Notes under the pieces: generated by a model
What the model saw: only the letters and a program-made list of their open reading frames with translations
The model's database searches: none
What the model was told of the DNA's origin: nothing
Shown: piece after piece, positions 10,409 to 63,266 of the stretch
Numbering within the stretch: the stretch's first letter is position 1
Layout of the letters: each line of letters opens with the position of its first letter
Position numbers and translations under genes: made by a program
Virus record (IMG/VR): IMGVR_UViG_3300025282_000024
From: a virus
DNA length: 64,000 bases
Direction: 5' to 3' (one strand)

Positions 10409-13400
10409 TTATTTGAGCTTAAGATCGTCTGCAGTTATTGATGCAAAATTTTCTTGGGCTTGTGCTTGTAATATTATAAATTGTTGAGGAGAAGATATAA
10501 GTGGAAGACTGCCAAGGGCGTTCTTGATAAAAGTATCAGGATCAGTTTCAGTAACAGAATCAGAAACGGGGGGAATAGTCCACAAAACTTCAAGTGGAAG
10601 TATCTTCAACATATCTATTATTGTTGGTGTGCTGATAGGCTCTGTTCTTGGGGTTAGCGTGACTGTCTCATTTATTTTTGCTAACTCAATTAATGAAAAG
10701 AAATCATAAGGCCAATTATAGCTATAATCGAGAGGCTTTAACCCTGGGACCGGGGCGGGGCCCGCTCCTGGTGGAGGAGGGCCTGGCATCATATTAGTCG
10801 CAGTTATATCATGATAAGACCAAGAAGCCTTTTGTTTAACTTTAAAAACCATCCATTGAATATTTTTTGGAAAGCCTATACCAGCAGGGCCAATCTTATC
10901 TCCGGGCACATCATTTAAGAGATCAAAGCCTTTGTTTGCATCTAAGACGTCCTCGGCTTTTGGTGGCGCCGGAGCTGGGCCAGTGTTAGTGGGGTCTGGC
11001 TTCCAAACCTCTCCGGCTAAAAGATTCATGCCAAAATCAATTTCAGAAACTGCACATTGAATTCCGCTGGCCGAGTCCGTTCTCTTTTCTGAGGGGAGTA
11101 CTCCCTGCCACATTTTAACCAAGTCATCTTGAGTAAAGTGGTGATCAAATTCAAATATGACCATAGCCATGGGTTCTTGATTTTTATTCATCAAGAAATT
11201 AAACCCAGGCGGAATAACATATTTTTTCATTGCCTTCACTAGATTAACAACTGATGGCGCAGGTTTATATTTTACGGCACCATCAACAGAACTAAGATTT
11301 TTTATTAAATAATCAATATCTTTAATTTCAGGATTAAGCAGCTTCGATTGAGCCCAGTCGATAGTTTTCCTATCTATGTGGAAAAAATTTCTACTGCCTT
11401 GAGAATCTTCATAAAACGGTACCGCAACAATTGCTTCACTTATAGTTTTGCCCTCTATGGGGATTTGGCCCAGCTTTTTACTTGGATTTAAATTAAAGCC
11501 TAATTTTTCTGCAAGATTTCCTACGGTGTCGTTATCTTGAGAGCCGCTGACAGGTTGGATTTCTAAGAATACGCCGCTGTCGGCAGAAGGGATAGTTCCA
11601 TATTGATGCCACATTCCCTTTGCAATTGACCATTCTCGATTTACGGTCTCAATAGAAGCGGTGATATTGGTGAAATCTAATATTGGACATTCCCACTTAG
11701 GTTGAATTACCCAGCGTGTTTTGCTACCTTCTGTAACAACTTGATTCCAATTTATAGAAGCACTTAGTTGCATAGCTGCTTGAGCTGCCGGCGGAACTGT
11801 GTTCAGAACATCCGGGGGCCAGCTGATTGCGACGGCCGCTCCAGAAGTTATCATGTCTCTGTAATATGAAGCTGTTATAGCTGACATTACATCTGTTATT
11901 GTTTTATAGCCACTAAATTCCGGAGTATAAGATATCTCAATATGACTATAACCATTGTAATACGGAGGAGTATATGGCTCAAAACTGCCAGTGGCTTTGC
12001 CGGCCCAACCAATACCTGGCGCATAGGCAGTATGGCTGCCGGCATATATTGGGGGGCCAAAAGAAGACCCATAAACAGGAATATGTGTGGTGTTGACCTG
12101 TACACCAACTGTATGTGTTCCAGAGAACCATGGTACTACGCCGCGGTTGTAACCGCTGTCGGAGGCCGTTAGACTTAAATATTTGGTTTGGTAGGTTCTG
12201 TCGAACGCCCGGTTATACATCATAATTGTGGGTGGGTTATATTCATAAGATGCACTATTGTTATAGCGAAGGGCGCCTGCCACAGTTGATGTATCCTGAA
12301 GGGTAGCAAGATCACGTATTTCTGAGTGGGAGCACACTATTCTCATTTTATACGTTTTATCTGCCGTAAAATAAATGAAATTGCCCTCGGCTTTTGCGCC
12401 TAAAGGATCCTCAAATAATGGGGCGCTCCCTTCTAATGTTTCTTTAGACACAAAAGTTGTCATTGGGCCATAATCATTATCATTTTTTCCATCGGTGGCT
12501 CCCAAAAAGAAGCGCGGAACCTCTGATGTAAAGTTATTAATTGCCATATTATAAAGATCATTTGCAGGCTTTCCAAAACTTCCGGTACTATCTATCGAAG
12601 AGGAGCGGTGTGTTTCGGCGTCCACTATTTTCCCAATGTCACTGAGCCAATAATCAGGATTTACGAGAGCCTCAAAAGGTGCCCTTTTTGTTGGCGGAGT
12701 TGTGGCTATACCAACATAGTGGTCTATTGCGTTTGCGGTTATATAATCTGTGAGTGATCCAGTAAACAGAGGATAGTCAACTGCCAATCCGGATTTAATT
12801 GAATTATATAATATACCAGGAGCAAAAAATGGTGTCATTAGAGTGCGCCAATTAGCCTCTGAGCCTGTTAAATCAGCATTAGGAGCATAAGATTGACTAA
12901 ACAACGTTGCTAGCTGCACTGACCTTTCAGAAGGATAAAAACCATCATAAGGAAGGAATTTCATGAGTGCATTACATTTAAGAGTGAGATTCGTAGGCAT
13001 TGCAACGCTTGAAAAGTCGCTGTCAATCGGTTGAAAATATTTCAAAAAATCAGCATTGCTATATACTGTGTAAAAAGAACCAGAGCCAAGCAACGTAGTA
13101 TCAGCGCTGCTACTTATAACTGATCCTGTCAAAGTTAGCCAACCAGGATTATCCGCCAAAAATCCACCAGAAGAAGCCATATCAACAACATGATATTCCA
13201 TATGCTCACTAATTCTATATTCTGGAACAATACCATAATCTTTTCCAATGCTTCTAACATCTTCAGCATATTCTTTATAAGTATTATAGGAAGGGTTATA
13301 TCCCGATTGCTCGCCAGCTTCCCATTCAGTTTGGCCAAGATAAAATGCTACAAATGGGCTGTCGGTGTACACTTGAGGAATTCTTCTGTTATATGTTGCG

Positions 13401-21061: not shown

Positions 21062-22933
21062 TTACTCTACTCGAAACTTGTATTCTTCAGATTGTTCAAC
21101 ATATTGAGAATTCAAATAATATACGAATTTTATTGCATATACATTGTCTGACTCCAGAAGAGACATATCTAAATCAAAATAACTCCCGCTCTTATCAAAG
21201 GACAGTCTAGTATAGTTGGCGCTTCCTGTGCCATAAGATATTACTTCCAAATCATCGTTAACACGATAAAGTTTATAATAGACATCCTCAACTAAATCAA
21301 TTGGTGCTTTTTTTGAAGACACTGTATAGATGGTTGGACTCCAATCTTTTTTTCTTGTGTACAATCTAAATCTAGCTTTTGTATTTTGATTAGAATATGA
21401 TGGCTTTAAGTTAGTAATATTACTCACAAATTGCTGATTTGGGTTAAATGATTGTCCGGGCCAAACTTGAGTTAAACTTTTCGGCTCAATTGATCCTGTA
21501 TAATATTGAACGCTGGCGCTGTGCCACACATCATAAACAGTAGTTAAAGATGTCGAGCCAGTAAACGCAAAAGAGGCTGAATATATGCCGGTAGAAACAT
21601 AACCTCCCGTGACATTATAATCTCCAGATGTTACGACGCCCCCACCAACGCTTAAAGCTAACGTCGCGCCCGAAGGGGCAGTATTATCCGAAGAGCCGGA
21701 ATATAAACTAACCAATATAGCGCCAGTTCCAACTGCCGGAATGTTCTTTAATTGACCTCGTACATAATTGTAATAATAAATTGTATTTAAATTATCGGCA
21801 GCAGGAGCTAAAGAACTGCTGTAATAAAAGCTCCCTCTATCATCTTTTATAGAAGAATCCCACCGAGCTTCAATAATTGGTCTATAGAAAAAATATTGAG
21901 ACCCTCGTGCAAAAAACTTTTTAGTATAATAGGAAACAGAGTCAGATTCTTCAGTGGAAGACAATTTAACTCCGACACCATAATTTGATTTAGAGCCCAA
22001 TACATTTCCTGCACTATTAATCCATTGCTCAACTAGCGGAGTAATATCTAACTCCAAATCCTCGAAACCAGTATTGAAGGAAGCAGTAAAAGAGGAAGAG
22101 GCGTCTGAATAATAATCACCGCCCTCTGTTGTCCACAAAGTATAATCACTTCCGCCGCCAAGAGTTCCACTTAATCCACTATTGGCAACGCTGTCACTAC
22201 CCGTAACATCAAAAACGGCGGCGGCGCTAGAAGATATAGAATTTAAATTTCCTGCTGCTCCTGCGGCGGATGAAGTAATATAAACAATAGAACTAACAGC
22301 ATTTGCACTAAAGTCTGCGCTAGCTGACGTATTTATTATTGTAACTATATTGGTGGCGCATGCAGCAGTGCTGCCTCCAATGTGAAAAAAGTCGGGCGCC
22401 GGGGTTGCATCATTTATAGAAGTAAACAAATAATTCGCTGTTGCTCCAGTTAAATGGAGTGTGTTAGCGGCTGTATTCGCTCGTACAGTTATAGATGCGC
22501 TAGCGGCAATATCCGTATCTGTTGTGTAAAGCCAGTTTGATGGCTCTTCATTAGAATAATTTTCCATATCTAAGCCATTGCCCTCTTGCCAAGATTGAGA
22601 AATCGCTGATACAACTAGATTAAAATCCTTTGGCGTTGTTTGGGAATGTCTTGCGTTGAACATTCTTAAATAAAAGGAAACGCTTCCGGAGGCCGGGATA
22701 TTTCCTTGAGTGCGATCATATGAAATATAATTCGCGGCAGTCCCAGTGACCGGAAATTTAATTAAAATTCTAGCATATTCAGTTGATGAAGCTGATTCCT
22801 GTGCATATATGGAAAATGATTCTACTATGTCTGATTGGCCCATATTGCCACTGACGCCGCGTTCGGTTAAATTAGCTTTATAAGCATTAGTAATTGTATT
22901 GTCTGCGTCTGCAGTGTATCTTTTAATAGCCAT
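21062..22933 (-). CDS. Virion structural protein with an interrupted DNRLRE/CBM96-like domain
   Basis: 623 aa. RILIKF..SWQEG..W..EGGDY..DITPLVEQW..NYGVGVK..RPIIEARW pattern. TAATG-coupled to the gp6-like gene. Confidence 0.55.
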   Translation of the reverse strand: MAIKRYTADADNTITNAYKANLTERGVSGNMGQSDIVESFSIYAQESASSTEYARILIKFPVTGTAANYISYDRTQGNIPASGSVSFYLRMFNARHSQTTPKDFNLVVSAISQSWQEGNGLDMENYSNEEPSNWLYTTDTDIAASASITVRANTAANTLHLTGATANYLFTSINDATPAPDFFHIGGSTAACATNIVTIINTSASADFSANAVSSIVYITSSAAGAAGNLNSISSSAAAVFDVTGSDSVANSGLSGTLGGGSDYTLWTTEGGDYYSDASSSFTASFNTGFEDLELDITPLVEQWINSAGNVLGSKSNYGVGVKLSSTEESDSVSYYTKKFFARGSQYFFYRPIIEARWDSSIKDDRGSFYYSSSLAPAADNLNTIYYYNYVRGQLKNIPAVGTGAILVSLYSGSSDNTAPSGATLALSVGGGVVTSGDYNVTGGYVSTGIYSASFAFTGSTSLTTVYDVWHSASVQYYTGSIEPKSLTQVWPGQSFNPNQQFVSNITNLKPSYSNQNTKARFRLYTRKKDWSPTIYTVSSKKAPIDLVEDVYYKLYRVNDDLEVISYGTGSANYTRLSFDKSGSYFDLDMSLLESDNVYAIKFVYYLNSQYVEQSEEYKFRVE

Positions 22934-49447: not shown

Positions 49448-49831
49448 TTATACCTCTTTTGTTGTTTTAGTCGTTGTTTTAGAGGCGCGTGCCTTACTAT
49501 TTTCTGGCGTAGTAGTTTCTCTAGTCGCTCTTGATTTGGGAACTGTTTTCTTCGTAGGTGCCTTTGATTTTGTAAAAGATTTTGCTTTCTTAATCTTAAG
49601 GTGCCACGTTGCCTCTGCATCTTCAGCTTTTCTAAAATTACTAACCGAGTCGGGGCCATCAACAGCTTCTACTTTAAAATCTTTATGTTTCTTTTCAAAT
49701 TCTTTTACAATAGTGTGTTTTTTAATTATTATTTTCTTTTCAGGGCGCAAACCATCCCAGAATAAGCTTTTCTTAATTACTACATTCGACTGATCTAAAA
49801 ACTCAATATGCATTTCTATATTCTCCTTCAT
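49448..49831 (-). CDS. Hypothetical protein with basic K/T/S-rich C-terminal tail
   Basis: 127 aa, tiles between neighbours; low-complexity basic tail. Confidence 0.65.
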   Translation of the reverse strand: MKENIEMHIEFLDQSNVVIKKSLFWDGLRPEKKIIIKKHTIVKEFEKKHKDFKVEAVDGPDSVSNFRKAEDAEATWHLKIKKAKSFTKSKAPTKKTVPKSRATRETTTPENSKARASKTTTKTTKEV

Positions 49832-50525
49832 TACTATAGTTCATTTCATATTCTTCCATTATGTTATTAATTTTATTATATAATACCGGACTTATATTCT
49901 TTAAGTATTTTTTATCTCTAAGAAAATAATTTTCAAAGCCATTAGCAAAATATTCATTAATGCTAGTAATTGCATAAGGAGAATAAAATAATCCCATTAT
50001 AAGGCTCTCTAAAAGAGGATATCCAACAATATTATACAAATAATAATCCAAATGTTTATCATATTCTGGATCATTAAATTTATCCTCCGGAGGCTCATAT
50101 CCTTCCTGATCTAAGAGATTGTAAAGTGTGCGCCGTTTCGAAAGGAATTCATCTTTTAAGACATCATCAAAATAAATATCTTTGCCATAACTTTCTTCTA
50201 CAGCATGAGCCATTTCATGTACAATATCATCAATCATATCGTTTTCGCTTTCTTGCTTATTTGTTATGTATAACGCGCCATCTTTATATTTTGCGTTAAA
50301 GGGTGTGTTGCTATCATTAAAAGCCTTAAAGCTTCCCACATACATTGCATCGACATTGTTCACGAGCCACTTAGGAACAAGGCCCTCAACAGTATCTAAC
50401 ACATATTGAAGATCAAAGTGGTAAGGAAGCTGATCCTTCAAAAAAACTAACTTATCACCGTATACTAGACGTTCTTTACTACTCTTTTTAGCGGCAGTGC
50501 TGCTCTCAACAATATATTCTTTCAT
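49803..50525 (-). CDS. Zincin-like metallopeptidase-domain protein
   Basis: IVHEMAHAVE (HExxH) plus downstream NEYFANGFENY. Start probably MKEYIVE at 50525. Confidence 0.7.
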   Translation of the reverse strand: MKEYIVESSTAAKKSSKERLVYGDKLVFLKDQLPYHFDLQYVLDTVEGLVPKWLVNNVDAMYVGSFKAFNDSNTPFNAKYKDGALYITNKQESENDMIDDIVHEMAHAVEESYGKDIYFDDVLKDEFLSKRRTLYNLLDQEGYEPPEDKFNDPEYDKHLDYYLYNIVGYPLLESLIMGLFYSPYAITSINEYFANGFENYFLRDKKYLKNISPVLYNKINNIMEEYEMNYSNEGEYRNAY

Positions 50526-50526
50526 T

Positions 50527-50790
50527 TTAAAGAAGCCCTTCACTCTTCATCATTTTTTCACCTTCATCAAAATCATAAATTGCCTGTTGGTATCCACGAA
50601 TAAAATTCTCTTCAGCAACAGCTAAAAGAAATTCTGGAAACTCTTTTGCTACTGTCTTAATAATCATCTCAACATTAACTTCATCATTTTCAGGGCTTAC
50701 TTGATTACCAACATAATCAACGAGCCACTCTTTTAATTCATTTGACTTCTCGACTGGCTTAAGAAGGTCCGGATTTTCATCAATACTCAT
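50527..50790 (-). CDS. Hypothetical protein
   Basis: 87 aa, SD GGAG, abuts the DoxX gene. Confidence 0.75.
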   Translation of the reverse strand: MSIDENPDLLKPVEKSNELKEWLVDYVGNQVSPENDEVNVEMIIKTVAKEFPEFLLAVAEENFIRGYQQAIYDFDEGEKMMKSEGLL

Positions 50791-52676: not shown

Positions 52677-53132
52677 ATGAAAAGGTTACTAATACTGGTT
52701 ATTTTATTTTCTTTAATGTTTCCAACTGTTTCGAACGCAGGTCTTATATACTGCGATAAAGAGTGTTTCAAATTAAAAGACTCTCAGATAACAACTATTA
52801 AGGGGCTTTTATATGAAGTGGCGGAAAGTCAAAATAAAAAAACAAAAAAAACTTTCTTACCACATGTGGCCGAAACAATTGTTTGGATGGATAAAAAACA
52901 CAAAGAAGAAAAGGTCTATAAATTAGAAGATTTAAAAAAAGACGATAAGGCAAATTTAATCAACACATCAATAAGTTTTATTCTCGATGTGCTTTATGGA
53001 AGAACAAAATTTAATCCGCGTGTGGTTTTATATCACTGGGGTATCGTTGGTGAAAAGGTTATTGCCGAATATAAAGAAAAGATAGTTGATAAAAAGACTG
53101 TGATAGAATATAAGCTGGAGTTAAAAAAATGA
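52677..53132 (+). CDS. Secreted/periplasmic hypothetical protein
   Basis: SD GGAGG; Sec-like signal MKRLLILVILFSLMFPTVSNA; ATGA overlap with the protease gene. Confidence 0.8.
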   Translation: MKRLLILVILFSLMFPTVSNAGLIYCDKECFKLKDSQITTIKGLLYEVAESQNKKTKKTFLPHVAETIVWMDKKHKEEKVYKLEDLKKDDKANLINTSISFILDVLYGRTKFNPRVVLYHWGIVGEKVIAEYKEKIVDKKTVIEYKLELKK

Positions 53133-53893
53133 ACTTAATAAAAAAATTATTAACCATGATTGGCGCCTTATTTATATTATCAACATGTACGTCTTTCAAC
53201 TCAAACATACCTATAGGTTATAATTATAATACAGAAAGAGTTGTAGAAAATCTTCCAAGAGATTCATTTCTATTTATTCTGGTTGAAGAATATTACGAAC
53301 ACTGTTATACATCCGCGCTTAGTGACAAAAAAGAGTGTATCGTTTTTAAGGATACCGGAGCATTTAGTGGATCTGCCTTTGTAATATATAATACGCCGGG
53401 AGGAAGCTTGGTTATAACGGCTGATCATATATGTCAAACATCTGGCCCCAATATGAAACAGAAAATGACTTTAACAACTTTAAATGGTAAAACATATAGA
53501 GCTAAAATTTTAGAAAGAGATTCTAAAAGGCAAAACGATGTATGTATGATCTACGCAAAAAATTTAAAAAAGCCACCAGTTAAATTAGCTCTTAGTGGGC
53601 CTAAGCCGGGTGCAAAACTTTTTAATATTGCTGCACCTGCAGGTATTTTTAATATTAATATGGTCCCTATATTAGAGGGTCGTTATAATGGATTGTCTTT
53701 TGCTGGAAGTGCAATATATTCAATTCCAGCAGCCGGGGGATCTTCGGGATCAATGGTGCTTAATTATAACTTTGAATTAGTTGGATTAATCCATTCACTG
53801 CATATAAGATTTCCCACGGTAACAGTGGGCCCGTCTTATGAAGTTATAAGTGAGTTTATAAGAAAAGGAATTAAAAAGCACTCTCATATATAG
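53129..53893 (+). CDS. Trypsin-like (S1) serine protease with signal peptide, possibly a lipoprotein
   Basis: SGSAF, ITADHIC (His), NDVCMI (Asp), AGGSSGS (Ser). N-terminal hydrophobic stretch ends in LSTC, a near-lipobox. Confidence 0.88.
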   Translation: MNLIKKLLTMIGALFILSTCTSFNSNIPIGYNYNTERVVENLPRDSFLFILVEEYYEHCYTSALSDKKECIVFKDTGAFSGSAFVIYNTPGGSLVITADHICQTSGPNMKQKMTLTTLNGKTYRAKILERDSKRQNDVCMIYAKNLKKPPVKLALSGPKPGAKLFNIAAPAGIFNINMVPILEGRYNGLSFAGSAIYSIPAAGGSSGSMVLNYNFELVGLIHSLHIRFPTVTVGPSYEVISEFIRKGIKKHSHI

Positions 53894-54194: not shown

Positions 54195-54632
54195 TGGTGG
54201 AGGCGTGGGGAGTCGAACCCCAGTCCGAAAAGAATTAATATTACCGTCATTCACAAGAATAGATGCTTAACCACCCAAACATCAGCCACCTGTTACCAGG
54301 GCTTTCCATTTACCATCTTAAGGCGATGGCTACCAAAAAGTACATAGTAAACTACAATACTTAAGTCCCCTTATTATAAAAATAAAGATATTCGTCCCCG
54401 CAATAAATTACATGAACTAGGTTATTTGAACCCTTAAAAACTAGCAGATGATATCGTATATGCCACCGAATTAACTTTTTTTATAAAGCGTTAATAACTC
54501 CAGACTATGCAGCTAAGGCGTAGTCAAACTCCATATCATTGTTGGCGTTTAAATTTTGAGTATTTTTATTGTGCTACTCACACAATCTTGCACGCTAATA
54601 TCTCAACCCTCCGTCAAGACCAGTTCGCCCCC
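54195..54632 (-). ncRNA. ssrA: tmRNA (one-piece), tag peptide ANNDMEFDYALAA
   Basis: 5' GGGGGCG pairs with 3' CGCCTCC-ACCA including the G3-U wobble. T-arm TGGGG-TTCGACT-CCCCA. Helix 2 pairing (GATATTA/TAATATT, GCAAG/CTTGT). H-type pk1 ATTGTG/CACAAT + TGAGTA/TACTCA (54557-54586). Resume context TAAAC-GCC; tag ORF 54546-54505 ends YALAA-stop. Confidence 0.97.
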
Positions 54633-55115: not shown

Positions 55116-55904
55116 TTATATACTGTATGTTATTTCACTTATAAGTGCAGCGTCTTTCCCTGTTTCTGTTTCAGAAGGAGGGTAATCTGGGCTAGGTGGT
55201 TCTTCTTTTATGCTATCAGTCATCTCACCTTCAAATTTATCAAAATATAATTTAAGATTTGTAAGCCCCCACTCTTTAAAAGTTGCAGCGTCTTCCGGAG
55301 CAATAAGGCCTTCGTAGGCTGTTACGATTTGCTGTTGTACTTGATTCAATGCTGCCTCAGAAGCGTCAGCTCCTTGTTGTACGTAAGGGTCATCAGAGTC
55401 TAATTTAACAAATGTGTTTTCTTCCTCTTCAGCATCTTTTTTGGCTGCCTCAACATCTTGAGGTCTGGATGGTAGAAATTTTTCTGCATCCGCTGGAGCA
55501 TTAATAACATCATCTTGCTCCACTTCCACTTCGAAGTCAACCTCATTCAACTGTGGTGTCGGAGCGTTTCTGTTAGCGTCAATCGGATTCAATAGATTTA
55601 AGAAATTAGTTAAAAAGTGGTATCTAAAAGACTCCCTTTCTTTTTTATTAGAAGACAAGTTTGTATAAGGATCTTCAATTTGTACAATGATCCTTTTAAG
55701 GAGCGCGTCTAGTACATTAATGCCGGTATTTTTATGAATAACCTTATCAGCAACTGCAGTTTTTTTAGAAACTTCAGGTATAAGATGACGAATAACTTTC
55801 CTTAACCTTTTTTCTTCTAGACGCACTTGTTTCTTTTTTCTTTTCTGTACAATACGAATACCTTCGCGAATTAATAATCTGAGTTGCTGTTCTTGCTGAT
55901 TCAT
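55116..55904 (-). CDS. Putative internal head protein
   Basis: 262 aa; LRLLIREGI and LRKVIRHLIPE helices, QLNE, acidic C-terminal half. Role inferred. Confidence 0.5.
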   Translation of the reverse strand: MNQQEQQLRLLIREGIRIVQKRKKKQVRLEEKRLRKVIRHLIPEVSKKTAVADKVIHKNTGINVLDALLKRIIVQIEDPYTNLSSNKKERESFRYHFLTNFLNLLNPIDANRNAPTPQLNEVDFEVEVEQDDVINAPADAEKFLPSRPQDVEAAKKDAEEEENTFVKLDSDDPYVQQGADASEAALNQVQQQIVTAYEGLIAPEDAATFKEWGLTNLKLYFDKFEGEMTDSIKEEPPSPDYPPSETETGKDAALISEITYSI

Positions 55905-58615
55905 TCTGTTGTGACTCCCATTGATTTATATAAATAGTCTTCAATCTCTCTAATTAACCCCTCTTCTTTATCATCTCGTTTTCCGGCATAGCCTTCTACT
56001 GCACCGCCGCCCATGGCTGATATTTCTTCTAATTGACCACCAAGAGACAGATCCTGTTGGATTAATGAGCTGATTACTTTTTCCGGAATTCCGCTCATAT
56101 TATATAAAAAAGAAAATATTTGGGGAAGCACTTTTGTATAATCATAAGTTATTTCACTTCCAGGTAAAATATCTTTTAAAGTTTTTGTATATAATTTATT
56201 GTCAACTTTTTCTATAGTCGAGTTTGGATCTTGGGAGTGATTAATTCTTGCAGAGAGATCAGTCTGAGCCGTCCATATATTACCGCCGTCTAATGAAGAG
56301 GCTACCTGATCCTTTGTTAATTTTGGATTTTTGGGATATCTCGCTAATATATTTTCAGCTCCGCAGGTACCAAATTGCATTAATTGTATTTCTTTGGGGT
56401 CATGATAATCATCATATAAATTATCATTATTTAATTCTTTAAACGCTAACCCCAATAATTCATCTTTTTTGTGTTCATTTGTGCTGAAAGCGCCAACCCC
56501 ATGTATATCAGATGGTTTAAAAACTATGTTGCTATTTTCACCGCCGGTTTCTTCTAAAGGAATTGCCGGCGCCCAAGATCCATACATTTCTGTTGTGTCA
56601 GCTTCATTAAGTGTTTCTTCAATTAGCCCAAGAAAGATACCCAGAGGAATCTGGGAAACCTCCTCTAAACTCTCTTGTGCAGAATTTAATTTTGATTTAA
56701 TCAAATCATAAACAAAAGGATCATAAAATCCCATTATTTCTTCAAATTGTTCTGGTTCAGCAATCTTTAAAGCTTTCCGAATAGTGGTGCCAGACATTTC
56801 TCCCAGGCCGGGAATTTCAATTTCTATGTGAGGTGCGACAGCTATATAAGCATGATCTTTAACTCCATGGAAGTCTTCTTCGATCTCAAAATCCTTAAAA
56901 TATCTAGGCGTACCTTTTTTAGTAAGTCCACCTAAAGTTTCTCTTGGAAATCTGGGTTTGTCTCCATCACACACATTGGGATCTGCATCCATATCTTTAC
57001 AGCCAACAAAATAGACCACAACTGTACCAGGATCTAAATTGCGCGTAATTTCAATTGCATTATACGGATTTTTAGTTTGTACCAGTTTTGAAGGGTCAAC
57101 ATCATGCCCTGCTACAATTTCCTGCTTTTCTTGGAAATTAAATGGAGACTTAGGTACACCGCCTTTATCTGACATATCTACTTTATCAGAGGTTGCTAAA
57201 TATACTTCATCAAATCGAGGATCATTTAGTAGAGATTTGTAGACTTCTGCGTGATGTCTGCCCATGGGTTGAAACCTACCCGGGTAAATTGCGACCATCT
57301 TTTTTCCATCATCATCATAGAGGGACATGTATTCTTCATGCTCTTCTGATGTCATTGGATCTGCTGGGCTGCGCCGCGCACTTCTTTCTTCTTCTTCATA
57401 GCGCGCTGTTCTTGCATCTTCGTATTCGTCATTTTTGCCCCATGGGCCCTCTATAACATCCCCTTCGGCAATAACTCCTTGTTCTTTCGCTGCTTTAATT
57501 TTATCTTTAATTGCGCCTCCAGCGCCTGTTACAATGAAATCTCCTGTCACTTTCAGAGGTCGATCGGTCAAGCCTCGAACAACAATCCCTTCATGACCTT
57601 CTAAGCCCCCCTTAGTGCTATCTGAGGCGCGTTTGACGTCCATTCCTAGGGCGTGGGTACCCTGGTTGAAGAGAGCGCCGTTAATGGCCGTTTTTACGTC
57701 CTCTGGAGTCTCTAAAAATTCCATGAGAGGAGTTCCGTTTAAAACAGCAAAATAAATCTCTTTGCTTATTGCCCACGCTTCTTTTCCGTCACGTTTTTTG
57801 ACTTTTGCATCAAATGGATTAATTGCCTGAGACAACCACTCACCTAAAGAGTGAGTTTCACTTTCATTTTCTGTCATTTGTACGGTAAACGGTTGATTTA
57901 AAGTCTTGGCAAAGTCAACATCTGTAATTAATTCTGTTGCAACGTCCCCAACCAAACTAACCTCATGTTGTTCTGCAATTGGCTGTACTTTTTCAATAAT
58001 GGATTGAAGAACACCAGGGTCATAACTAATTTCAGTACTTCCGGCCTTTATAGGCTTTCCAGTTTCTGGATCAGTTGGTCTCTCTAATCCTGGTCTGTCC
58101 ATTCCTGTGCCTTTTTTAATTCGCCATGGTTGAGCCTTCTTTTCATAAAATTGGTTAACCCCATGAAGAGCTAATATTTTTTCGCCATATTCAATGACGT
58201 TGGTTTTCCCCTTTTTCATATATTCCGTATTAAAATACTTGGTAGGGTCATCCCACATTCCCAAAGCTTTCAATTCTGGTTTTATTTGAGGGAGCACCTC
58301 ATTAAATATTTTTAAAAGTTCATCAATTGCCGGCGGCATGCCATGTCCTTCTGGCCATTTTTTGTAAGCATCTGCAGAAGTTAAGCCCATAACAGAAGAA
58401 GGTTCGGAACTACCGCGATCCATTCTAAAATCTTTTCCAGTCGGAGTTGAAGGATCATCGACAAGTTTGAAACTTACATTAATGCCATCAAACTTAACGC
58501 TCCCGGGATTAGTAGAAAGATGATCTACGATAGTTTGAAAATACTTTACTAAATCTTGGCCCGTTTTAACACTTGGTATGTCAAAAGGGTGTTGCATATG
58601 TCCCGCAGTGCCCAT
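55901..58615 (-). CDS. Multidomain protein: ligase-fold nucleotidyltransferase-like + HUP/cytidylyltransferase-like + SET domain
   Basis: 904 aa. VKFDG..E..HEGIVV..LKV (ligase motifs); AIYPGRFQPMGRHH..MSGTTIR (HIGH/KMSKS-like); SDIHGVGAF..RINHSQDPN..DILPGSEITYDY (SET). Confidence 0.78.
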   Translation of the reverse strand: MGTAGHMQHPFDIPSVKTGQDLVKYFQTIVDHLSTNPGSVKFDGINVSFKLVDDPSTPTGKDFRMDRGSSEPSSVMGLTSADAYKKWPEGHGMPPAIDELLKIFNEVLPQIKPELKALGMWDDPTKYFNTEYMKKGKTNVIEYGEKILALHGVNQFYEKKAQPWRIKKGTGMDRPGLERPTDPETGKPIKAGSTEISYDPGVLQSIIEKVQPIAEQHEVSLVGDVATELITDVDFAKTLNQPFTVQMTENESETHSLGEWLSQAINPFDAKVKKRDGKEAWAISKEIYFAVLNGTPLMEFLETPEDVKTAINGALFNQGTHALGMDVKRASDSTKGGLEGHEGIVVRGLTDRPLKVTGDFIVTGAGGAIKDKIKAAKEQGVIAEGDVIEGPWGKNDEYEDARTARYEEEERSARRSPADPMTSEEHEEYMSLYDDDGKKMVAIYPGRFQPMGRHHAEVYKSLLNDPRFDEVYLATSDKVDMSDKGGVPKSPFNFQEKQEIVAGHDVDPSKLVQTKNPYNAIEITRNLDPGTVVVYFVGCKDMDADPNVCDGDKPRFPRETLGGLTKKGTPRYFKDFEIEEDFHGVKDHAYIAVAPHIEIEIPGLGEMSGTTIRKALKIAEPEQFEEIMGFYDPFVYDLIKSKLNSAQESLEEVSQIPLGIFLGLIEETLNEADTTEMYGSWAPAIPLEETGGENSNIVFKPSDIHGVGAFSTNEHKKDELLGLAFKELNNDNLYDDYHDPKEIQLMQFGTCGAENILARYPKNPKLTKDQVASSLDGGNIWTAQTDLSARINHSQDPNSTIEKVDNKLYTKTLKDILPGSEITYDYTKVLPQIFSFLYNMSGIPEKVISSLIQQDLSLGGQLEEISAMGGGAVEGYAGKRDDKEEGLIREIEDYLYKSMGVTTE

Positions 58616-58627
58616 TAATAATTTCCC

Positions 58628-59638
58628 TTATTCGTCCGCAGCCGCAAAAATATCCAAAAGTTCATTTTCTGCGCCGCTTCTTTCAGAAGCCGGCTTCGCT
58701 TTTAATGTTTGATACGTTTGCCACAATTTATCTTCAGCATCAGTAACTGCGGCTGCTCCGCCTGCAAGTATCGCATGGCCGCCCATTGAAGGGGAGGCGC
58801 CAGCTTTTGGAGTCCCCACAATTGCTGCAGCTGCAGCGACTTCATCGCCTTCTTCTTCACCCTCATCACCTTCGTCAAACACGCTGGGATATGCTTTTCT
58901 CAATTCTTCAGGCGACCCCTTGGCCAAGCCCACCGCGTATTTCATTAATTTATGTTCTTCTGGAAAGTCTTCTTCATCATCCAACCACCAAATTAAATCT
59001 TTATCTTGATCACCATCATCTTCCGCTTTGGTAACCTTATCAAATTCTTTATATATTTCATCCCACATTCCCATCATTGTTAAATGTTCTTGTGTACCGG
59101 GTTTAATATTTGGATCAATAATAAGAACATTTTTCACTGCATCTACACCAGAGCCGGGACCATCCATTGCATTAAAAAGCAGTTGTGCAAGGTCACGGGC
59201 CGTTTGCTCTCCCTTTTCCGTTCTTTTCGTAATTTCTGATTTGTTTTCTGTCTCTATACCCTCTCCAAAATCTTTGCCGGATACTAGGTTCCCTATTCCT
59301 TTTGAAAGCCATCCGGATTTATATCGGTCTGGGCTCTGACTAAACGCGTTTTTGCCCGTCGCGGCGCTGTATACCAAATTAATTGGATCAACCTTTTTAA
59401 AAAATTTATCATACCAATTATCTGTAACTCCAAGAGCGTCTGAAGTCCACGCTGCAGCGCCAACCGTGGCGCCAAGTTTAAGAGCCCCAACAATAAATGG
59501 GATAGCCGGCGGAAATTCTAAAAGAAGTTCTTTGTCTTCCTTAAAAATTTCTTCTAATAATTCTTTATCTTCATTTAAAATTGCTTCTTTGATAAGATTT
59601 TTTAATTCTTTTTTGGTTAAACTTTGTAAATCATTCAT
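58628..59638 (-). CDS. Putative internal virion protein with a hydrophobic segment and an annexin-like repeat
   Basis: 336 aa. N-terminal LKNLIKEAILNE..LLE; hydrophobic AIPFIVGALKLGATVGAAAW; AQLLFNAMDGPGSGVDAVKNVL..IYKEF..DLIWWLDDE resembles an annexin repeat. Confidence 0.55.
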   Translation of the reverse strand: MNDLQSLTKKELKNLIKEAILNEDKELLEEIFKEDKELLLEFPPAIPFIVGALKLGATVGAAAWTSDALGVTDNWYDKFFKKVDPINLVYSAATGKNAFSQSPDRYKSGWLSKGIGNLVSGKDFGEGIETENKSEITKRTEKGEQTARDLAQLLFNAMDGPGSGVDAVKNVLIIDPNIKPGTQEHLTMMGMWDEIYKEFDKVTKAEDDGDQDKDLIWWLDDEEDFPEEHKLMKYAVGLAKGSPEELRKAYPSVFDEGDEGEEEGDEVAAAAAIVGTPKAGASPSMGGHAILAGGAAAVTDAEDKLWQTYQTLKAKPASERSGAENELLDIFAAADE

Positions 59639-59640
59639 TA

Positions 59641-62256
59641 TTATTTTTTCCCCTTCAAAGATTTTCGCCCAGCTTCTAAAGCCTTAGTTACTTCTGGATC
59701 CATTAATGCTTTTTGGCCCGCCGGTGTTAATCCCTCTGGTCTTCCCGTGTATGGATTGGTTAATGTTGGGGGAGCCATTCCACTAGTATCGACTCCTGGC
59801 GCACCAAAGTCTGCGCCACCCACACCAGTAATTGCTATATCTTCTGCTGTCATAGGACCGGTCGGAACCTTTGCTTTCTTTCTCCTTTTTTTACCACCTT
59901 TCGCGCAGTATTTAACTCCTTTGCAATGGTCCCTGGAAAGCCAATAATCAGGGCGCCCGGGCTTTGCAAAATCCTTCCCATTCCATCGCCATCCGCGGCC
60001 TTCTAACCATTTTATCGACATACCTAACGCCGCCTCTTTTTTAGCGGCCGTATTGCCAGCCATTCCTGAGCCACCTTGCCCATCGGGGTCAGGAATTCCA
60101 GTATCAGGAGTATCTGGTAAAGCTCCAGCTGCACGATCTTGCTCTCTAACTTTCAATTCTATGCACGCGTCCTTATCTCCTTTCTCACATGCTGCTCTAA
60201 GTTGAGCGTCAGTCATTTGATCCATTAATTTCTGCTTTTCTACGCTGACTTCCCCTTCTTCACCACCAACGGAACCTGTTACTTTCAATGCGGCATAAAT
60301 TCCTAAGCCTGTGCAGAGTACCGGATGTTTTTTACACCAAGCTCCTAGGGCTCTAAAAATGCGCCCTTTACTAAGATTTTTCCAAAAGCCCGGTTTTGCA
60401 GCGCCCCGGCCTGCTCCTTTGGCTGCTCCTTTGGCTGCCGCTTTGGCTGCTAGTCTCTTTTGTAATCTAGCTGCCATAGCTTTGCTTGGCTTGAACTTCG
60501 CCAATTTAGCTGCCATCTTCTTCGCAGATGCATTTTTCGCCATTGGCTTCATGCCGCGTTGTGCCATGGCCAGATGAAGTTTCTGTCTAGAGAGGGTATC
60601 CCACGCTTTGCCCCTTGGCTTATTTATCCATGTTTTACCGTGTTTACCTACCCACTTGCTCCAACTATAACCCTTAGTACCAACCTTCCCACCGCGTTGC
60701 ATCATTTTTTGCAGCATTTTTTTACCGAGTTTGGTACCTCCGAGTTTTGAAAGACTTTTGGTTCCCACCCTCGCGGCGCCGCGGCCGAGGCGGGCCAGAC
60801 CGGTGAGCGACTCTAATAATACTATAGATGGAAAAATATTCTCTTCTTTTCCTTCGTGTAAAAGGCTTAGTGCCGCCGAAACTGCGCCCACATTTTTTCG
60901 ATATTCTTGTTGCGCTCTAAATTCTCTAAGGAGGAAATCATTTTCAAGATGAAGGCCCTCAGTTATTGCCTTCTTCATCTTTTCTTTATTTTCCCGGTTT
61001 TGTTTTCCTGCTTTTACCAAAGCCTTTTTAGCTTTGCATGCAGTAGTTTGTATTGTTTTTAGAGCATCCTTTGTTAAAAAGTCCACTTGAGGCGTATTAA
61101 TTTCTTCTCCTCTCTCTACATAAGCTTTTTCCAATGTTGCTGAAATATGTTTTTCAAATTCATCAATCACAGGCCCTTTCGCCGCGCACATTTGATTTAA
61201 AATATCTAATTTTCTTTGGGCAGAGGCTTCCTTTGGTATTTCTTCCTCGCCTTCTTCATCACTTTGTGCCAATAAAGATTTGGTCGATTCCAAGCCTTTC
61301 TTTAAAATTTCAGCTTTGTTTTCGGGTCCATCGTCGCTTTTTTTGGATTCGTCACCTTCAACTTCTTCAACTTCTTCAGTTTCTTCAGTTTCTTCAGCTT
61401 CAACGAGCCAATTTTCGAAAAGAGTATGAGGGTGTTTGTTATCTATTTTTTCTTGTAGTAATTTTTCACTATAAGAGACAGTCTCTTTATTTATTTTTTT
61501 TTTTTCGTTTACTGGTTTTCGCGCTTCAACACCCTGTGGATGAGGATCTGATTCTACGACGACATCATCCTCACTTTCTTCTTCTTCTAGTACTGCTTCG
61601 CCTTCTCCCTCTAGGGATCCCTCTTCACCCGTTCGATAATCAATTGGGTTCATATACGCTTGCAGTTCTTCTTCAAGGGTTTCCTCTTTGAGGGTTTCTT
61701 TTTCCGGAAACTTATAACCCCACTTTTCCATTAACAGACTGTTAAGTTCTTTATCTTTCCATTGTTTCGTCGACATATGGTTTGCTCCTTTAATAGAGGT
61801 ACGCTTATAAATAGTTTCATTAAGCTGAATATTCTTTATTTTAGATGTTTTAATGCCGTCTTCCCAGTCTCTCAAACAAAAATTCCCTTCCCTATATGCT
61901 TCGTCCTCCATCCCTCTTAAAAATTTATCATCTTGAGCATAGCCAGGTTTGGTAGAAAACTCTCTATTAAAGTCTCCCCGACAATTTTGATTATGATGTA
62001 CCAGCTCATGAGATAAAGATCTTAAAATATCTTTAATATGGCGCTTATCCACCATTATGGTGATAGCCATTTGAGAAGGATCATAATACGCTGTTTTACC
62101 CAAAGGGTTGAGCGAGTTTTCCTCATCGGAAGCAAAATTAATCGTAGGAGGCTTATTAAAGCCCAATCTTTTTTGTGCGAAGGGGAGAAACTCTCTTGCC
62201 AATTGTTCCAGTTGTGTTAAATCATAGGAAGTACTATTATTTATTACATATCCCAT
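59641..62256 (-). CDS. Multidomain protein: N-terminal zincin metallopeptidase, acidic LxE-rich linker, basic amphipathic region and hydrophobic helix
   Basis: 871 aa; DILRSLSHELVHHNQ..MEDEAY (HExxH + E). Confidence 0.7.
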   Translation of the reverse strand: MGYVINNSTSYDLTQLEQLAREFLPFAQKRLGFNKPPTINFASDEENSLNPLGKTAYYDPSQMAITIMVDKRHIKDILRSLSHELVHHNQNCRGDFNREFSTKPGYAQDDKFLRGMEDEAYREGNFCLRDWEDGIKTSKIKNIQLNETIYKRTSIKGANHMSTKQWKDKELNSLLMEKWGYKFPEKETLKEETLEEELQAYMNPIDYRTGEEGSLEGEGEAVLEEEESEDDVVVESDPHPQGVEARKPVNEKKKINKETVSYSEKLLQEKIDNKHPHTLFENWLVEAEETEETEEVEEVEGDESKKSDDGPENKAEILKKGLESTKSLLAQSDEEGEEEIPKEASAQRKLDILNQMCAAKGPVIDEFEKHISATLEKAYVERGEEINTPQVDFLTKDALKTIQTTACKAKKALVKAGKQNRENKEKMKKAITEGLHLENDFLLREFRAQQEYRKNVGAVSAALSLLHEGKEENIFPSIVLLESLTGLARLGRGAARVGTKSLSKLGGTKLGKKMLQKMMQRGGKVGTKGYSWSKWVGKHGKTWINKPRGKAWDTLSRQKLHLAMAQRGMKPMAKNASAKKMAAKLAKFKPSKAMAARLQKRLAAKAAAKGAAKGAGRGAAKPGFWKNLSKGRIFRALGAWCKKHPVLCTGLGIYAALKVTGSVGGEEGEVSVEKQKLMDQMTDAQLRAACEKGDKDACIELKVREQDRAAGALPDTPDTGIPDPDGQGGSGMAGNTAAKKEAALGMSIKWLEGRGWRWNGKDFAKPGRPDYWLSRDHCKGVKYCAKGGKKRRKKAKVPTGPMTAEDIAITGVGGADFGAPGVDTSGMAPPTLTNPYTGRPEGLTPAGQKALMDPEVTKALEAGRKSLKGKK
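60411..60450. repeat. In-frame 12-bp tandem repeat, about 3 copies (encodes AAKA/AAKG)
   Basis: ctgctcctttggctgctcctttggctgccgctttggctgc. Confidence 0.8.
61357..61402. repeat. In-frame 9-bp tandem repeat (encodes EET EET EEV EEV)
   Basis: ttcaacttcttcaacttcttcagtttcttcagtttcttcagcttca. Confidence 0.8.
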
Positions 62257-62270: not shown

Positions 62271-63266
62271 TTAGATTTTATCTTTATGGCTTGAAAAATG
62301 AATTTGATGAAGACTATCTACTCCCAGGCTTTTTGATAATAAATCTTTGAATTCGTTAGAAGAATTAAAATTTATTTTATTTCCATCTTTATAAAGAGCC
62401 CACGATCTTACCTTCTCTAAAACATCCATTTTATTAACAACAAGATGAGTAACACCGTTGATATGAATGGCTTTTCTAAGAAAATTTAAATCCATCCAAT
62501 TAACTTGACGTTTTCTTCCTGTTGTGGCGCCATATTCTTCGCCCACTTCTTGAATTAAACTGTAAACGGAGCCTTCTGGTTGAAAACTTTTTGCTCCAAC
62601 ATATGTTTCATACCCTTTTGCAACGCCCCAAACATGTCTGATGTTTTGAGGTGGTATTCCATTCATGCATGCTGCAGCAGAAATACAATTAGAAGATGTA
62701 ACATAGGGATAATCTCCCCAATCTATATCTAATCCAAATCCTTGGGCGCCCTCAAATAATACTTTTGAGTTGGGAGTATTAACATATAGCTCATCATATA
62801 AATCCACAATATATGGTTCTAATTCTGGAATGTCCTTAGCTCTCAGCCCTCGTCTGTCATATTTATCGCGATAGGCCGGCCCATTACCTCTTTTTGTTGT
62901 ACCTATTTTTGTATCTTTCCCATCTTCTTCAAGATGATCTTTTGTAATAATGTGAGCGTTCTCCGCAACAAAAATAAGCCCATTGGTTTTAATTCCGCCG
63001 CTTTCTAACTCTCCTATTTCTTTAAAAAATTGATCGACATTAAGAACACAGCCAGATCCGATAATAGATTTAATACCAAAAAACACTCCCGCAGGAATGT
63101 GATGAGTAACAAATTTTTTCCCATTATGGAAAATTGTATGGCCGGCATTACACCCTCCGTTATAACGAATAACGTGAGTATAATCTTCTTCTTGACAAAG
63201 CGCGTGTGTTACTTTGCCCTTTCCACAATCACCGTATTGTAAATCAACAACAACATCTGCAAACAT
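62271..63266 (-). CDS. purA: Adenylosuccinate synthetase (short form)
   Basis: QYGDCGKGK, RYNGGCNAGHT, IGTTKRGNGPAYRDK, FEGAQGFGLDIDWGDYPYVTSS, EYGATTGRKR, NKMD; SD GGAGG. Confidence 0.95.
   Translation of the reverse strand: MFADVVVDLQYGDCGKGKVTHALCQEEDYTHVIRYNGGCNAGHTIFHNGKKFVTHHIPAGVFFGIKSIIGSGCVLNVDQFFKEIGELESGGIKTNGLIFVAENAHIITKDHLEEDGKDTKIGTTKRGNGPAYRDKYDRRGLRAKDIPELEPYIVDLYDELYVNTPNSKVLFEGAQGFGLDIDWGDYPYVTSSNCISAAACMNGIPPQNIRHVWGVAKGYETYVGAKSFQPEGSVYSLIQEVGEEYGATTGRKRQVNWMDLNFLRKAIHINGVTHLVVNKMDVLEKVRSWALYKDGNKINFNSSNEFKDLLSKSLGVDSLHQIHFSSHKDKI

Follow-up and report, generated by a model that had tools for sequence, protein, structure and literature searches.

A modular three-enzyme phage protein as a candidate head-packaged, protease-processed effector of marine T4-like myoviruses

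Effectors that are packaged in the capsid and processed by the prohead protease gp21 are an established concept, as are polyvalent proteins, in which many disparate enzymes share one polypeptide chain. In T4, the capsid-targeting sequence comprises 10 residues, of which positions 8 and 10 direct processing by gp21, and there is precedent for C-terminal gp21 processing in the protein Alt (PMC9026906). The survey of polyvalent proteins (Iyer et al. 2017, PMC5512222) makes no mention of SET, nicotinamide mononucleotide adenylyltransferase (NMNAT) or HUP domains, and has ligases in another context only. Among viral SET domains, vSET of PBCV-1 is packaged and acts on a host protein at entry (PMC7019647), and it is the only packaged viral SET domain with a described function that we found. 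Here we analyse P0001, a protein of 904 amino acids (aa) encoded on a 64,000-nucleotide (nt) stretch of viral DNA (IMG/VR record IMGVR_UViG_3300025282_000024, hereafter the window), and describe its folds, catalytic motifs, cassette structure, junction rules and mimicry of a capsid-protein site.

P0001 shares features with each of these systems and differs from all of them. Like the T4 internal proteins and Alt, it belongs to a T4-type lineage (gp21 and gp23 homologues are present in relatives), it has [LIV]-x-E↓ junctions (the arrow marks an actual or putative cleavage position), and its relatives carry short LxE leaders. As in Alt, the C-terminus of which is also trimmed, there is a putative C-terminal propeptide, and delivery of an enzyme at entry is proposed for both. 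Alt is an ADP-ribosyltransferase, and its catalytic domains are unrelated to those of P0001. Unlike the T4 internal proteins, P0001 combines several enzymes in one precursor, has no N-terminal targeting sequence, and carries a motif that runs 11 residues past the cut, copying the capsid protein. The resemblance to polyvalent proteins lies in the many disparate enzymes per chain, in the predicted DNA-coupled delivery and host conflict, and in the GNAT and peptidoglycan-hydrolase domains carried by relatives of P0001, but the P0001 family is built on a constant pair of enzymes, and its junctions are putative prohead-protease sites. As in vSET, the SET domain of P0001 is a minimal viral domain that lacks a post-SET region; unlike vSET, it sits inside a polyprotein, the host is a bacterium without histones, and the similarity is at the level of motifs only. 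We propose, with confidence that is evenly balanced, that P0001 may be a head-packaged, gp21-processed and injected modular effector of an uncultured marine T4-like myovirus. Its parts are as follows (pLDDT, predicted local distance difference test).

55901-58615, minus strand: whole open reading frame (ORF) of P0001, 904 aa plus stop; ATG at 58615, stop codon 55901-55903
57500-58615, minus strand: ligase/capping-type covalent nucleotidyltransferase domain, aa 1-372
57305-57499, minus strand: linker 1, aa 373-437, acidic, pLDDT <50; holds VIAE↓G (381-384) and VIE↓G (387-389)
56669-57304, minus strand: HUP-class adenylyltransferase domain resembling NMNAT, NadD and phosphopantetheine adenylyltransferase (PPAT), aa 438-649; PGRFQPMGRHH and MSGTTIR
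56549-56668, minus strand: junction segment, aa 650-689, LEE↓VSQIPLGIFLGLIEETLNE ... AIPLEE↓; upstream edge of an insertion hotspot
56024-56548, minus strand: SET cassette, aa 690-864, with PLEE↓ and QLEE↓ on its two sides
56138-56500, minus strand: SET Pfam core, aa 706-826; IHGVGAF, RINHSQDPN and EITYDY
55904-56023, minus strand: conserved C-terminal tail, aa 865-904, ISAMGGGAVEGYAGK...GLIREIEDYLYKSMGVTTE

A first-pass annotation of the window, made from the letters alone, had described P0001 as three enzymes separated by LxE linkers. Plain counting of LxE shows no enrichment and is therefore not evidence, but the specific junction motifs are non-random. We see this at the start of the ligase-like domain. 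In 72 distinct contexts where this domain is internal, the residues before it follow a [LIV]-x-E↓GG rule: P4 is aliphatic in 64/72, P3 is L, I or V in 72/72, P2 is variable, P1 is Glu in 68/72, and P1'-P2' is GG in 72/72. Where the domain is N-terminal, as it is in 169 proteins, the sequence starts M-G-(G/T), with Met at the Glu position. The combination means that the mature ligase-like domain would always begin with Gly, through either Met removal or cleavage after Glu, and for P0001 the mature N-terminus is probably G2. The junction LLTE↓GGAAGH is also found ahead of another domain, in P0220 and P0173, and three P0220-like proteins have Cys in place of the Glu before GG. Leaders are present in 44 relatives, with a length of about 5-35 aa and an end in a [LIV]-x-E↓GG site, so placed that the domain's GHM motif falls within the first 45 residues; examples are MKLLAE↓GG, MLILE↓GG, MITFKQYLLNE↓GG and MNFREFWTLILE↓GG. 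By analogy, these short leaders resemble the T4 capsid-targeting sequence. The LxE of linker 1 (VIAE) is kept in close relatives only.

Towards the C-terminus, usually about 45 residues from the end, 62 proteins of the family share the motif E-L-E-E-[IM]-S-A-M-G-G-G-A-V-E-G, and from its sequence the tail of P0001 is a putative propeptide that would be released after LEE864. In the model, the motif stretch (aa 862-876) is coil with pLDDT 26-40, and the C-terminal helix that follows has pLDDT 61-68. The major capsid proteins of the related phages G001 and G002 contain ..LLENQAKELLRE-ASTMAGGDVEGFAAVAFPIVRR.. and ..ELLRE-SSSMSAGDVEGFAAV.., that is, a segment at aa 50-80 (L021/L023 of G001, L022/L024 of G002) of the form ELLRE↓(A/S)S(T/S)M(A/S)(G/A)GDVEGFAAV. 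The tail sequence ELEE↓ISAMGGGAVEG matches ELLRE↓ASTMAGGDVEG in this segment. Alignment with T4 gp23 places the capsid segment directly upstream of the conserved VRR..VQPM block. T4 gp23 is cut at ..FLTE65↓AEIGG, which lies in the aligned region, and T4 gp24 at MAKINELLRE10↓S; P5-P1 of the G001/G002 capsid site are identical to the gp24 site ELLRE↓S. When the motif was used as a regular expression over 126,157 translated residues (all loci plus the window), the only matches were family tails and those capsid proteins. From the alignment and this specificity we conclude that the tail imitates the presumed maturation site of the capsid protein, with a resemblance that extends 11 residues beyond the cut. 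Proteins with a tail mostly lack an N-terminal leader and vice versa (49/155 versus 6/83; Fisher p 1e-5, calculated with kinship ignored). A search with the tail alone against longer proteins found it in this family only, and there is thus no evidence for a portable signal on other families.

Relatives encode a protease of the gp21 type. In the phage G001 (IMG/VR, 190.6 kilobases (kb), 100% complete), which has an orthologue that is 64% identical to P0001, PF03420 identifies a prohead protease of the T4 gp21 type (E 6e-25), and the capsid protein is of the gp23 type (E 5e-62); G002 also encodes both a gp21-type protease and a gp23-type capsid protein. The only cultured member of the family that we found is WWT39297.1 of Microcystis phage Mel-JY01 (PP395634.1), a protein of 639 aa at 11243-13162 (L005/L027) annotated as 'cytidylyltransferase like protein'. 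Its HUP domain (E 5e-57 with the family profile) is joined through IIAE↓GGLGGHMNHPFD to a ligase-like domain that is divergent (E 2.7e-13). Its gene lies 2.6 kb upstream of terL, inside the head-gene block; further on, this block holds a prohead protease that matches PF03420 at E 4.7e-31, as well as a T4-like capsid protein. PF03420 was also detected in two huge-phage records with partial family matches. It was not found in five other related records, all of which are fragments, 12-48% complete, and hence uninformative.

The N-terminal domain of P0001 had been called a ligase-fold nucleotidyltransferase on the basis of short motifs, and structural modelling bears this out. An AlphaFold2 model of the domain built with 63 homologues is confident (pLDDT 88.8; predicted template modelling score, pTM, 0.83), and in a structural search (VIA, 48,161 PDB representatives) places 1-23 are all ligases or capping enzymes, with Z of 5.2-7.2 and about 165-209 aligned residues. 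The matches comprise Pmar-Lig, NgrRnl, T4 Rnl1, REL1, Trl1, archaeal Rnl3, T4 Rnl2 and capping enzymes, as well as the T7, T4 and Chlorella virus DNA ligases. A Z below 8 is modest, yet the match list is homogeneous; with Foldseek, E values are 0.03 or worse and ligases again dominate the list. The residues that are invariant in the 63 sequences stand in the classical order: K41, D43, G44 and N46 in motif I (K41-F-D-G-I-N; K41 codon at 58493-58495), N129-x-E131 in motif III (FNTE131Y), E342, G343 and R347 in motif IV (HE342G343IVVR347), and K355-x-T-G in motif V (LK355VTG). K41 lies at a distance from the alignment start that fits the catalytic Lys of Rnl1, Rnl2, REL1 and NgrRnl, as judged from alignment ranges only. 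Because the top 23 matches are exclusively ligases and capping enzymes and the invariant residues follow the classical motif order, we accept domain 1 as a modelled covalent nucleotidyltransferase fold with K41 as the predicted catalytic lysine.

Compared with the described RNA and DNA ligases and capping enzymes (T4 Rnl1/Rnl2, NgrRnl, REL1, Trl1, Pmar-Lig), P0001 has the same fold (Z 7.0-7.2) and the invariant Lys, and its motifs I, III, IV and V follow in the usual order. It differs in the Arg that closes motif IV, in the lone Lys of motif V, and in the lack of an OB domain or any other C-terminal module that is known; insertions account for about 200 residues. We know of no counterpart to the conserved N-terminal G-x-x-GHMxHPFD segment. 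Neither Pfam and PHROGs nor searches of PDB sequences with the single sequence and with an N-domain profile recognised the ligase-like domain. One candidate label, DUF6267 (PF19782), arose from neighbouring ESM-Atlas clusters, in which 21-26% of members carry it, and was rejected since its hidden Markov model has no match in P0001, in 10 standalone relatives or in five related phage records.

For the HUP domain, an assignment as nucleotidyltransferase with a variant HIGH motif (PMGRHH) had been made earlier, and the fold matches to NMNAT and NadD agree with it. A profile of 46 homologues matches the nicotinic acid mononucleotide (NaMN) adenylyltransferase NadD over the whole domain (PDB 8aih, E 1.6e-5), followed by the archaeal NMNAT MJ0541, NadM and PPAT. 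This part of the model has pLDDT >90; Foldseek retrieves NadD 1k4k (E 2e-5, probability 1.00), and VIA retrieves archaeal NMNAT 1m8k (Z 11.7, root-mean-square deviation 2.9 Å over 148 aa), NadD (11.6) and PPAT (11.5). PF01467 has no match in P0001 itself at E<=1; it matches 11/52 relatives at E<=0.001, and P0084 scores 34.9 bits against a cut-off of 21 bits. Like archaeal NMNAT, with its GRFQPFHKGH sequence, P0001 has a GRFQP..H stretch, an ISxTxxR-type motif and a matching fold (Z 11.7). Unlike NMNAT, NadD, NadM and PPAT, including the phage NARP2 Nmnat, its HUP domain is fused to a ligase-like domain and not to Nudix or Nampt. The ISxTxxR-type motif, MSGTTIR, is intact and its R is invariant. 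Where the canonical motif is H-x-G-H, P0001 has G-R-H-H, of which the last His is invariant, and distant family members have the canonical form (GGFKPPHRGH, PHRGH); the earlier description as a variant HIGH motif is thus exact. The P0001 lineage lacks the first His, which may change or lower the activity of the adenylyltransferase. By its fold, the HUP domain may act on NMN, NaMN, phosphopantetheine or another substrate.

The two enzymes occur as a pair in most of the relatives sampled. Searched with a profile, 1.84 billion cluster representatives gave 604 clusters (50% identity), 265 of them at E<=1e-30, and all listed matches are unnamed or 'hypothetical' proteins from environmental or metagenome sources. 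Among 52 sampled multidomain relatives, 49 contain both the ligase-like and the HUP domain, as ligase-HUP or HUP-X-ligase, and this co-occurrence in either order indicates a conserved functional pair and not random concatenation. Around the pair we find Tad3, Amidase_2 (E 1.6e-16), DUF192, DUF5661, GNAT and DUF6934 cassettes. Tad3 (PF25185, E 6.6e-24) is present in P0220, placed between the HUP and ligase-like domains; this metagenomic protein of 1053 aa runs HUP, DUF5661, Tad3, LLTE↓GGAAGH, a Cys-rich segment and the ligase-like domain. Experiments have validated Tad3 as an inhibitor of ThsB, the TIR protein of Thoeris (reviewed in PMC13728456). Thoeris kills via depletion of nicotinamide adenine dinucleotide (NAD+), a mode of killing that goes well with an NMNAT-like core domain. 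From sequence, the core pair together with the Tad3 and amidase cassettes would point to early counter-defence and entry functions. In GenBank phages (50,697 records), tblastn with the N-domain gave no match even at E 1, and tblastn with the HUP domain matched only Mel-JY01 and one huge phage. The two huge-phage records show partial, weak similarity: one has an N-domain match (27% identity, E 3e-5) with a 39-position HUP-profile match, and the other a HUP-domain match. The family, its core pair, its cassette set and its capsid-site-like junctions were not found in Pfam, PHROGs, the polyvalent-protein survey or the literature searched.

In P0001 the third domain is a SET cassette. PF00856 matches with E 3.6e-8 and 34.2 bits (cut-off 22.4) over model positions 1-104 of 105. 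A small SET profile searched against the PDB retrieves almost only SET lysine methyltransferases; PBCV-1 vSET (1n3j) is among them, at E 0.07. All these matches are weak, with a best E of 0.0046, and none reaches beyond the NHS/YDY segment. The cassettes of P0001 and P0005 are 58% identical, compared with 80% for the whole proteins, and keep GxG, RINHSxDxN and E(I/L)TYDY. The earlier SET call thus stands on the Pfam score and the catalytic motifs, but the fold was not recovered in the model. As regards origin, a word-based search among near-length proteins found no relative at E<=0.001, and in the Atlas the nearest clusters are viral SET proteins.

The first-pass annotation had also likened the SET domain, bracketed by LEE on both sides, to an exchangeable cassette, and the homologues agree. 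The cassette is limited to P0001, P0005 and P0134. In the orthologue alignment a 16-residue acidic linker stands where P0001 has SET, between ..MFGPAIAAVP and ELEEISAMG, and in P0013 the same site is occupied by an unrelated insert of about 230 aa. The versions with SET have an added upstream junction, PLEE↓(T/V)(G/C)GEN, and retain the downstream (Q/E)LEE↓ISA. In the junction segment (aa 650-689), L and E are invariant or nearly so in alignments A2 and A5, and a helix is predicted at pLDDT 55-70. DNA repeats in the cassette flanks do not go beyond chance 14-17-mers, and the GC content of the cassette is slightly below that of its flanks.

The fusion itself is real. Sixteen contigs from three sources, up to 165.6 kb long, carry P0001 with identical sequence, an orthologue of equal architecture (P0005/P0134, 80% identical) lies on a 144 kb contig, and gene order is kept on independent contigs; on these grounds an assembly artefact, which had been named as a way for the three-enzyme description to fail, is excluded. 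Within this single ORF all three domain calls are supported, the ligase-like domain by structure search, HUP by profile and structure search, and SET by Pfam. Every motif quoted in the first-pass annotation is present, namely KFDG (K41), HEGIVVR (341-347), VIAE (381-384), PGRFQPMGRHH (445-455), SLEE/LIEETLNE/PLEE (649-689), IHGVG, RINHSQDPN, EITYDY and QLEE-ISAMGGGAVEG (861-875), and its domain boundaries agree with ours to about 10 residues.

P0001 is part of a tight co-directional run on the minus strand (PurZ-like, 871-aa, 336-aa, P0001, 262-aa) with gaps of 2-14 nt; in the last pair, P0001 and the 262-aa gene overlap by 4 nt. The features around it are these.

62271-63266, minus strand: adenylosuccinate-synthetase-like (PurZ-like) gene; PHROG 1211 E 6.8e-75, PF00709 E 2.6e-86; syntenic in relatives
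59641-62256, minus strand: 871-aa protein with a conserved N-terminal HExxH (SHELVHH)
58628-59638, minus strand: 336-aa protein with a conserved N-terminal helix ending LLLE↓ or LI(P/S)E↓VS
55116-55904, minus strand: 262-aa protein with a conserved N-terminal helix ending LLLE↓ or LI(P/S)E↓VS
54195-54632, minus strand: transfer-messenger RNA (tmRNA); Rfam RF00023 87.2 bits (gathering 47), E 3.9e-34, full model
53129-53893, plus strand: Trypsin_2 serine protease, syntenic with the cluster in L001, L003 and L004
51250-52560, minus strand: PIN-PhoH fusion (PhoH2 type), PHROG 2765 E 1e-112

The order PurZ, about 870 aa, about 340 aa, P0001 or its counterpart, about 260 aa, then Trypsin_2 and PIN-PhoH is kept in three loci (L001, L003, L004). 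From sequence, the 871-, 336- and 262-aa neighbours look like co-packaged cargo. All three are of low complexity, with acidic or basic composition, and Pfam does not match any of them; a PHROGs search gave no match for them or for P0001. PHROG 1211 is annotated as PurZ-type, '2-aminooxy adenylosuccinate synthetase', and the PurZ-like gene suggests a 2-aminoadenine (Z) genome.

The idea that P0001 is delivered by the virion and processed by a protease gains substantial, if indirect, support from the [LIV]-x-E↓GG rule, the capsid-like tail, the prohead protease of relatives, the leaders, and the Tad3 and amidase cassettes. We infer packaging, cleavage, substrates and timing as follows. P0001 would be incorporated into the prohead, where a gp21-type protease would cut at [LIV]-x-E sites. 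A cut at LEE↓ISAMG would remove the tail; SET, seen as a lineage-specific insert between the core pair and the tail, would probably be released by cuts at PLEE↓TGG and LEE↓VSQ, and possibly a cut at VIAE↓G would also be made. The enzymes would then be injected with the DNA and be active in the first minutes of infection as counter-defence. Chemically, the ligase/capping-fold enzyme is expected to form a Lys41-nucleoside monophosphate intermediate and pass the nucleotide to a 5'-phosphate, the NMNAT/NadD/PPAT-type enzyme to produce an ApP-X dinucleotide such as NAD+, and the SET domain to act as a protein-lysine methyltransferase. In principle, the AMP of a ligase-type Lys-AMP could be handed on to NMN, which would run step 1 of NAD-dependent ligases backwards, or to 5'-phosphates of nucleic acids. 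Both core enzymes make adenylyl-5'-phosphate linkages, so that the pair may plausibly either restore NAD+ or repair RNA or DNA ends that can be adenylylated, and SET may methylate a host protein. As substrate assignments, RNA repair, NAD handling and host-protein methylation are guesses.

Several observations weigh against this reading of P0001 as packaged and injected. LxE/IxE is not enriched in the protein (17 observed versus 11 expected, inside the range of other ORFs of the window), and 10/19 of its [LIV]-x-E sites fall within well-modelled domains (aa 1-372, 438-649). P0001 opens MGTAGHM, straight into the folded domain and without an N-terminal targeting sequence, and leader and tail are both absent from HUP-first relatives. 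The gene is flanked by a PurZ-like gene of nucleotide metabolism on one side and the tmRNA/PhoH region on the other, outside any head module, and the T4 late-promoter sequence TATAAATA is neither enriched nor positioned upstream of the cluster. The gp21 protease and capsid gene are seen only in relatives whose orthologue is at most 64% identical. Within the enzymes, the first His of HxGH is replaced in the P0001 lineage, and the SET region is modelled at a pLDDT of only about 30 (3-row alignment), its fold not being recovered because just three sequences cover the region. Some of these points are what one would expect if P0001 were a cytoplasmic, unprocessed multidomain enzyme, for instance of nucleotide or NAD metabolism beside PurZ, with the junctions serving as domain caps or flexible linkers. 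We regard this as unlikely, yet as the foremost of the rivals. It would accord with the operon-like packing with the PurZ-like gene at gaps of 2-14 nt, with the missing leader and with the overall LxE count, and the co-occurrence of ligase-like and HUP domains would fit a coupled two-step pathway, which favours staying fused. It leaves unexplained the coincidence, in 169 sequences, of the start Met with the Glu position of [LIV]-x-E↓GG, the aliphatic P3, Glu P1 and variable P2 of the 72 internal contexts, the tail that copies a capsid-protein cleavage site, the leaders of 5-35 aa that end in LxE, and the peptidoglycan amidase cassette.

Cleavage might also take place outside the prohead, in the cytoplasm, through another phage protease, either the Trypsin_2 protein, which may be Glu-specific as V8-family enzymes are, or the 871-aa protein with its zincin head. 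The Trypsin_2 gene is syntenic in L001, L003 and L004, HExxH is conserved at the N-terminus of the 871-aa neighbour, and self-processing by zincin domains has been proposed for polyvalent proteins. The junction and tail motifs, however, match the site logic of T4 gp21 and the capsid protein's own site, and no specificity is assignable to the Trypsin_2 protein, so that we judge this route improbable. Lower still, at the level of a very slim chance, we place a mainly structural or scaffold-like head protein in which the enzyme-like folds are inactive relics. Mimicry of the capsid-protein N-arm region by the tail and the variant HxGH without its first His would suit such a protein, but none of the five ligase motifs varies among 63 diverse sequences, nor do the ISxTxxR-type motif and the last His of HxGH vary, and NHS and YDY of SET are kept between cassettes that are only 58% identical. 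This pattern in the ligase, HUP and SET motifs points to selection on catalysis.

If P0001 is indeed packaged and matured in the head, the T4 principle of packaged, protease-matured and injected effectors would extend to multi-enzyme precursors in abundant ocean phages, and the grammar of [LIV]-x-E↓GG plus ELEE↓ISAMGGGAVEG could predict head-packaged cargo from metagenomes. Tad3 would then be tied to a ligase-like/NMNAT-like pair, pointing to an unrecognised counter-defence chemistry directed at NAD+ or nucleic acids. P0001 would also be the first phage case that we found of a probably packaged SET protein methyltransferase, and would raise the question of its bacterial target at entry. Going further, we put forward tentatively, with confidence short of that in the proposal for P0001 itself, that the family may represent an undescribed capsid-delivered anti-defence platform. 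A fixed ligase-like/NMNAT-like core would act at entry, by NAD+ regeneration or end resealing, and swappable cassettes (SET, Tad3, amidase, GNAT, DUF192) would lie between prohead-protease sites that evolved to mimic the capsid maturation site.

Elsewhere, the window has the gene content of a large myovirus: it encodes a gp25 baseplate wedge and the PIN-PhoH fusion, contains sugar-nucleotide and glycosyltransferase genes, and has two very long ORFs, of 3548 and 2343 aa. ARAGORN, run over the whole window, found neither tRNA nor tmRNA. Six large structural ORFs (21062-22933, minus strand, and neighbours; 623, 598, 1317, 1234, 2343 and 3548 aa) gave no significant Pfam match (one 16-bit HasA match was under the cut-off), and the 623-aa ORF had no tblastn match among the 50,697 GenBank phage records. 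To judge from these sequences, the phage lineage is one without a close cultured relative. One further feature was recorded.

49803-50543, minus strand: 246-aa ORF with a weak, sub-cut-off match to the zinc-metallopeptidase motif region of the ATLF and M90 families, E 1.4e-5, 25.3 bits against a cut-off of 27.4

The best cultured matches of the PIN-PhoH fusion are 34-36% identical and come from Bacillus and Arthrobacter jumbo phages.

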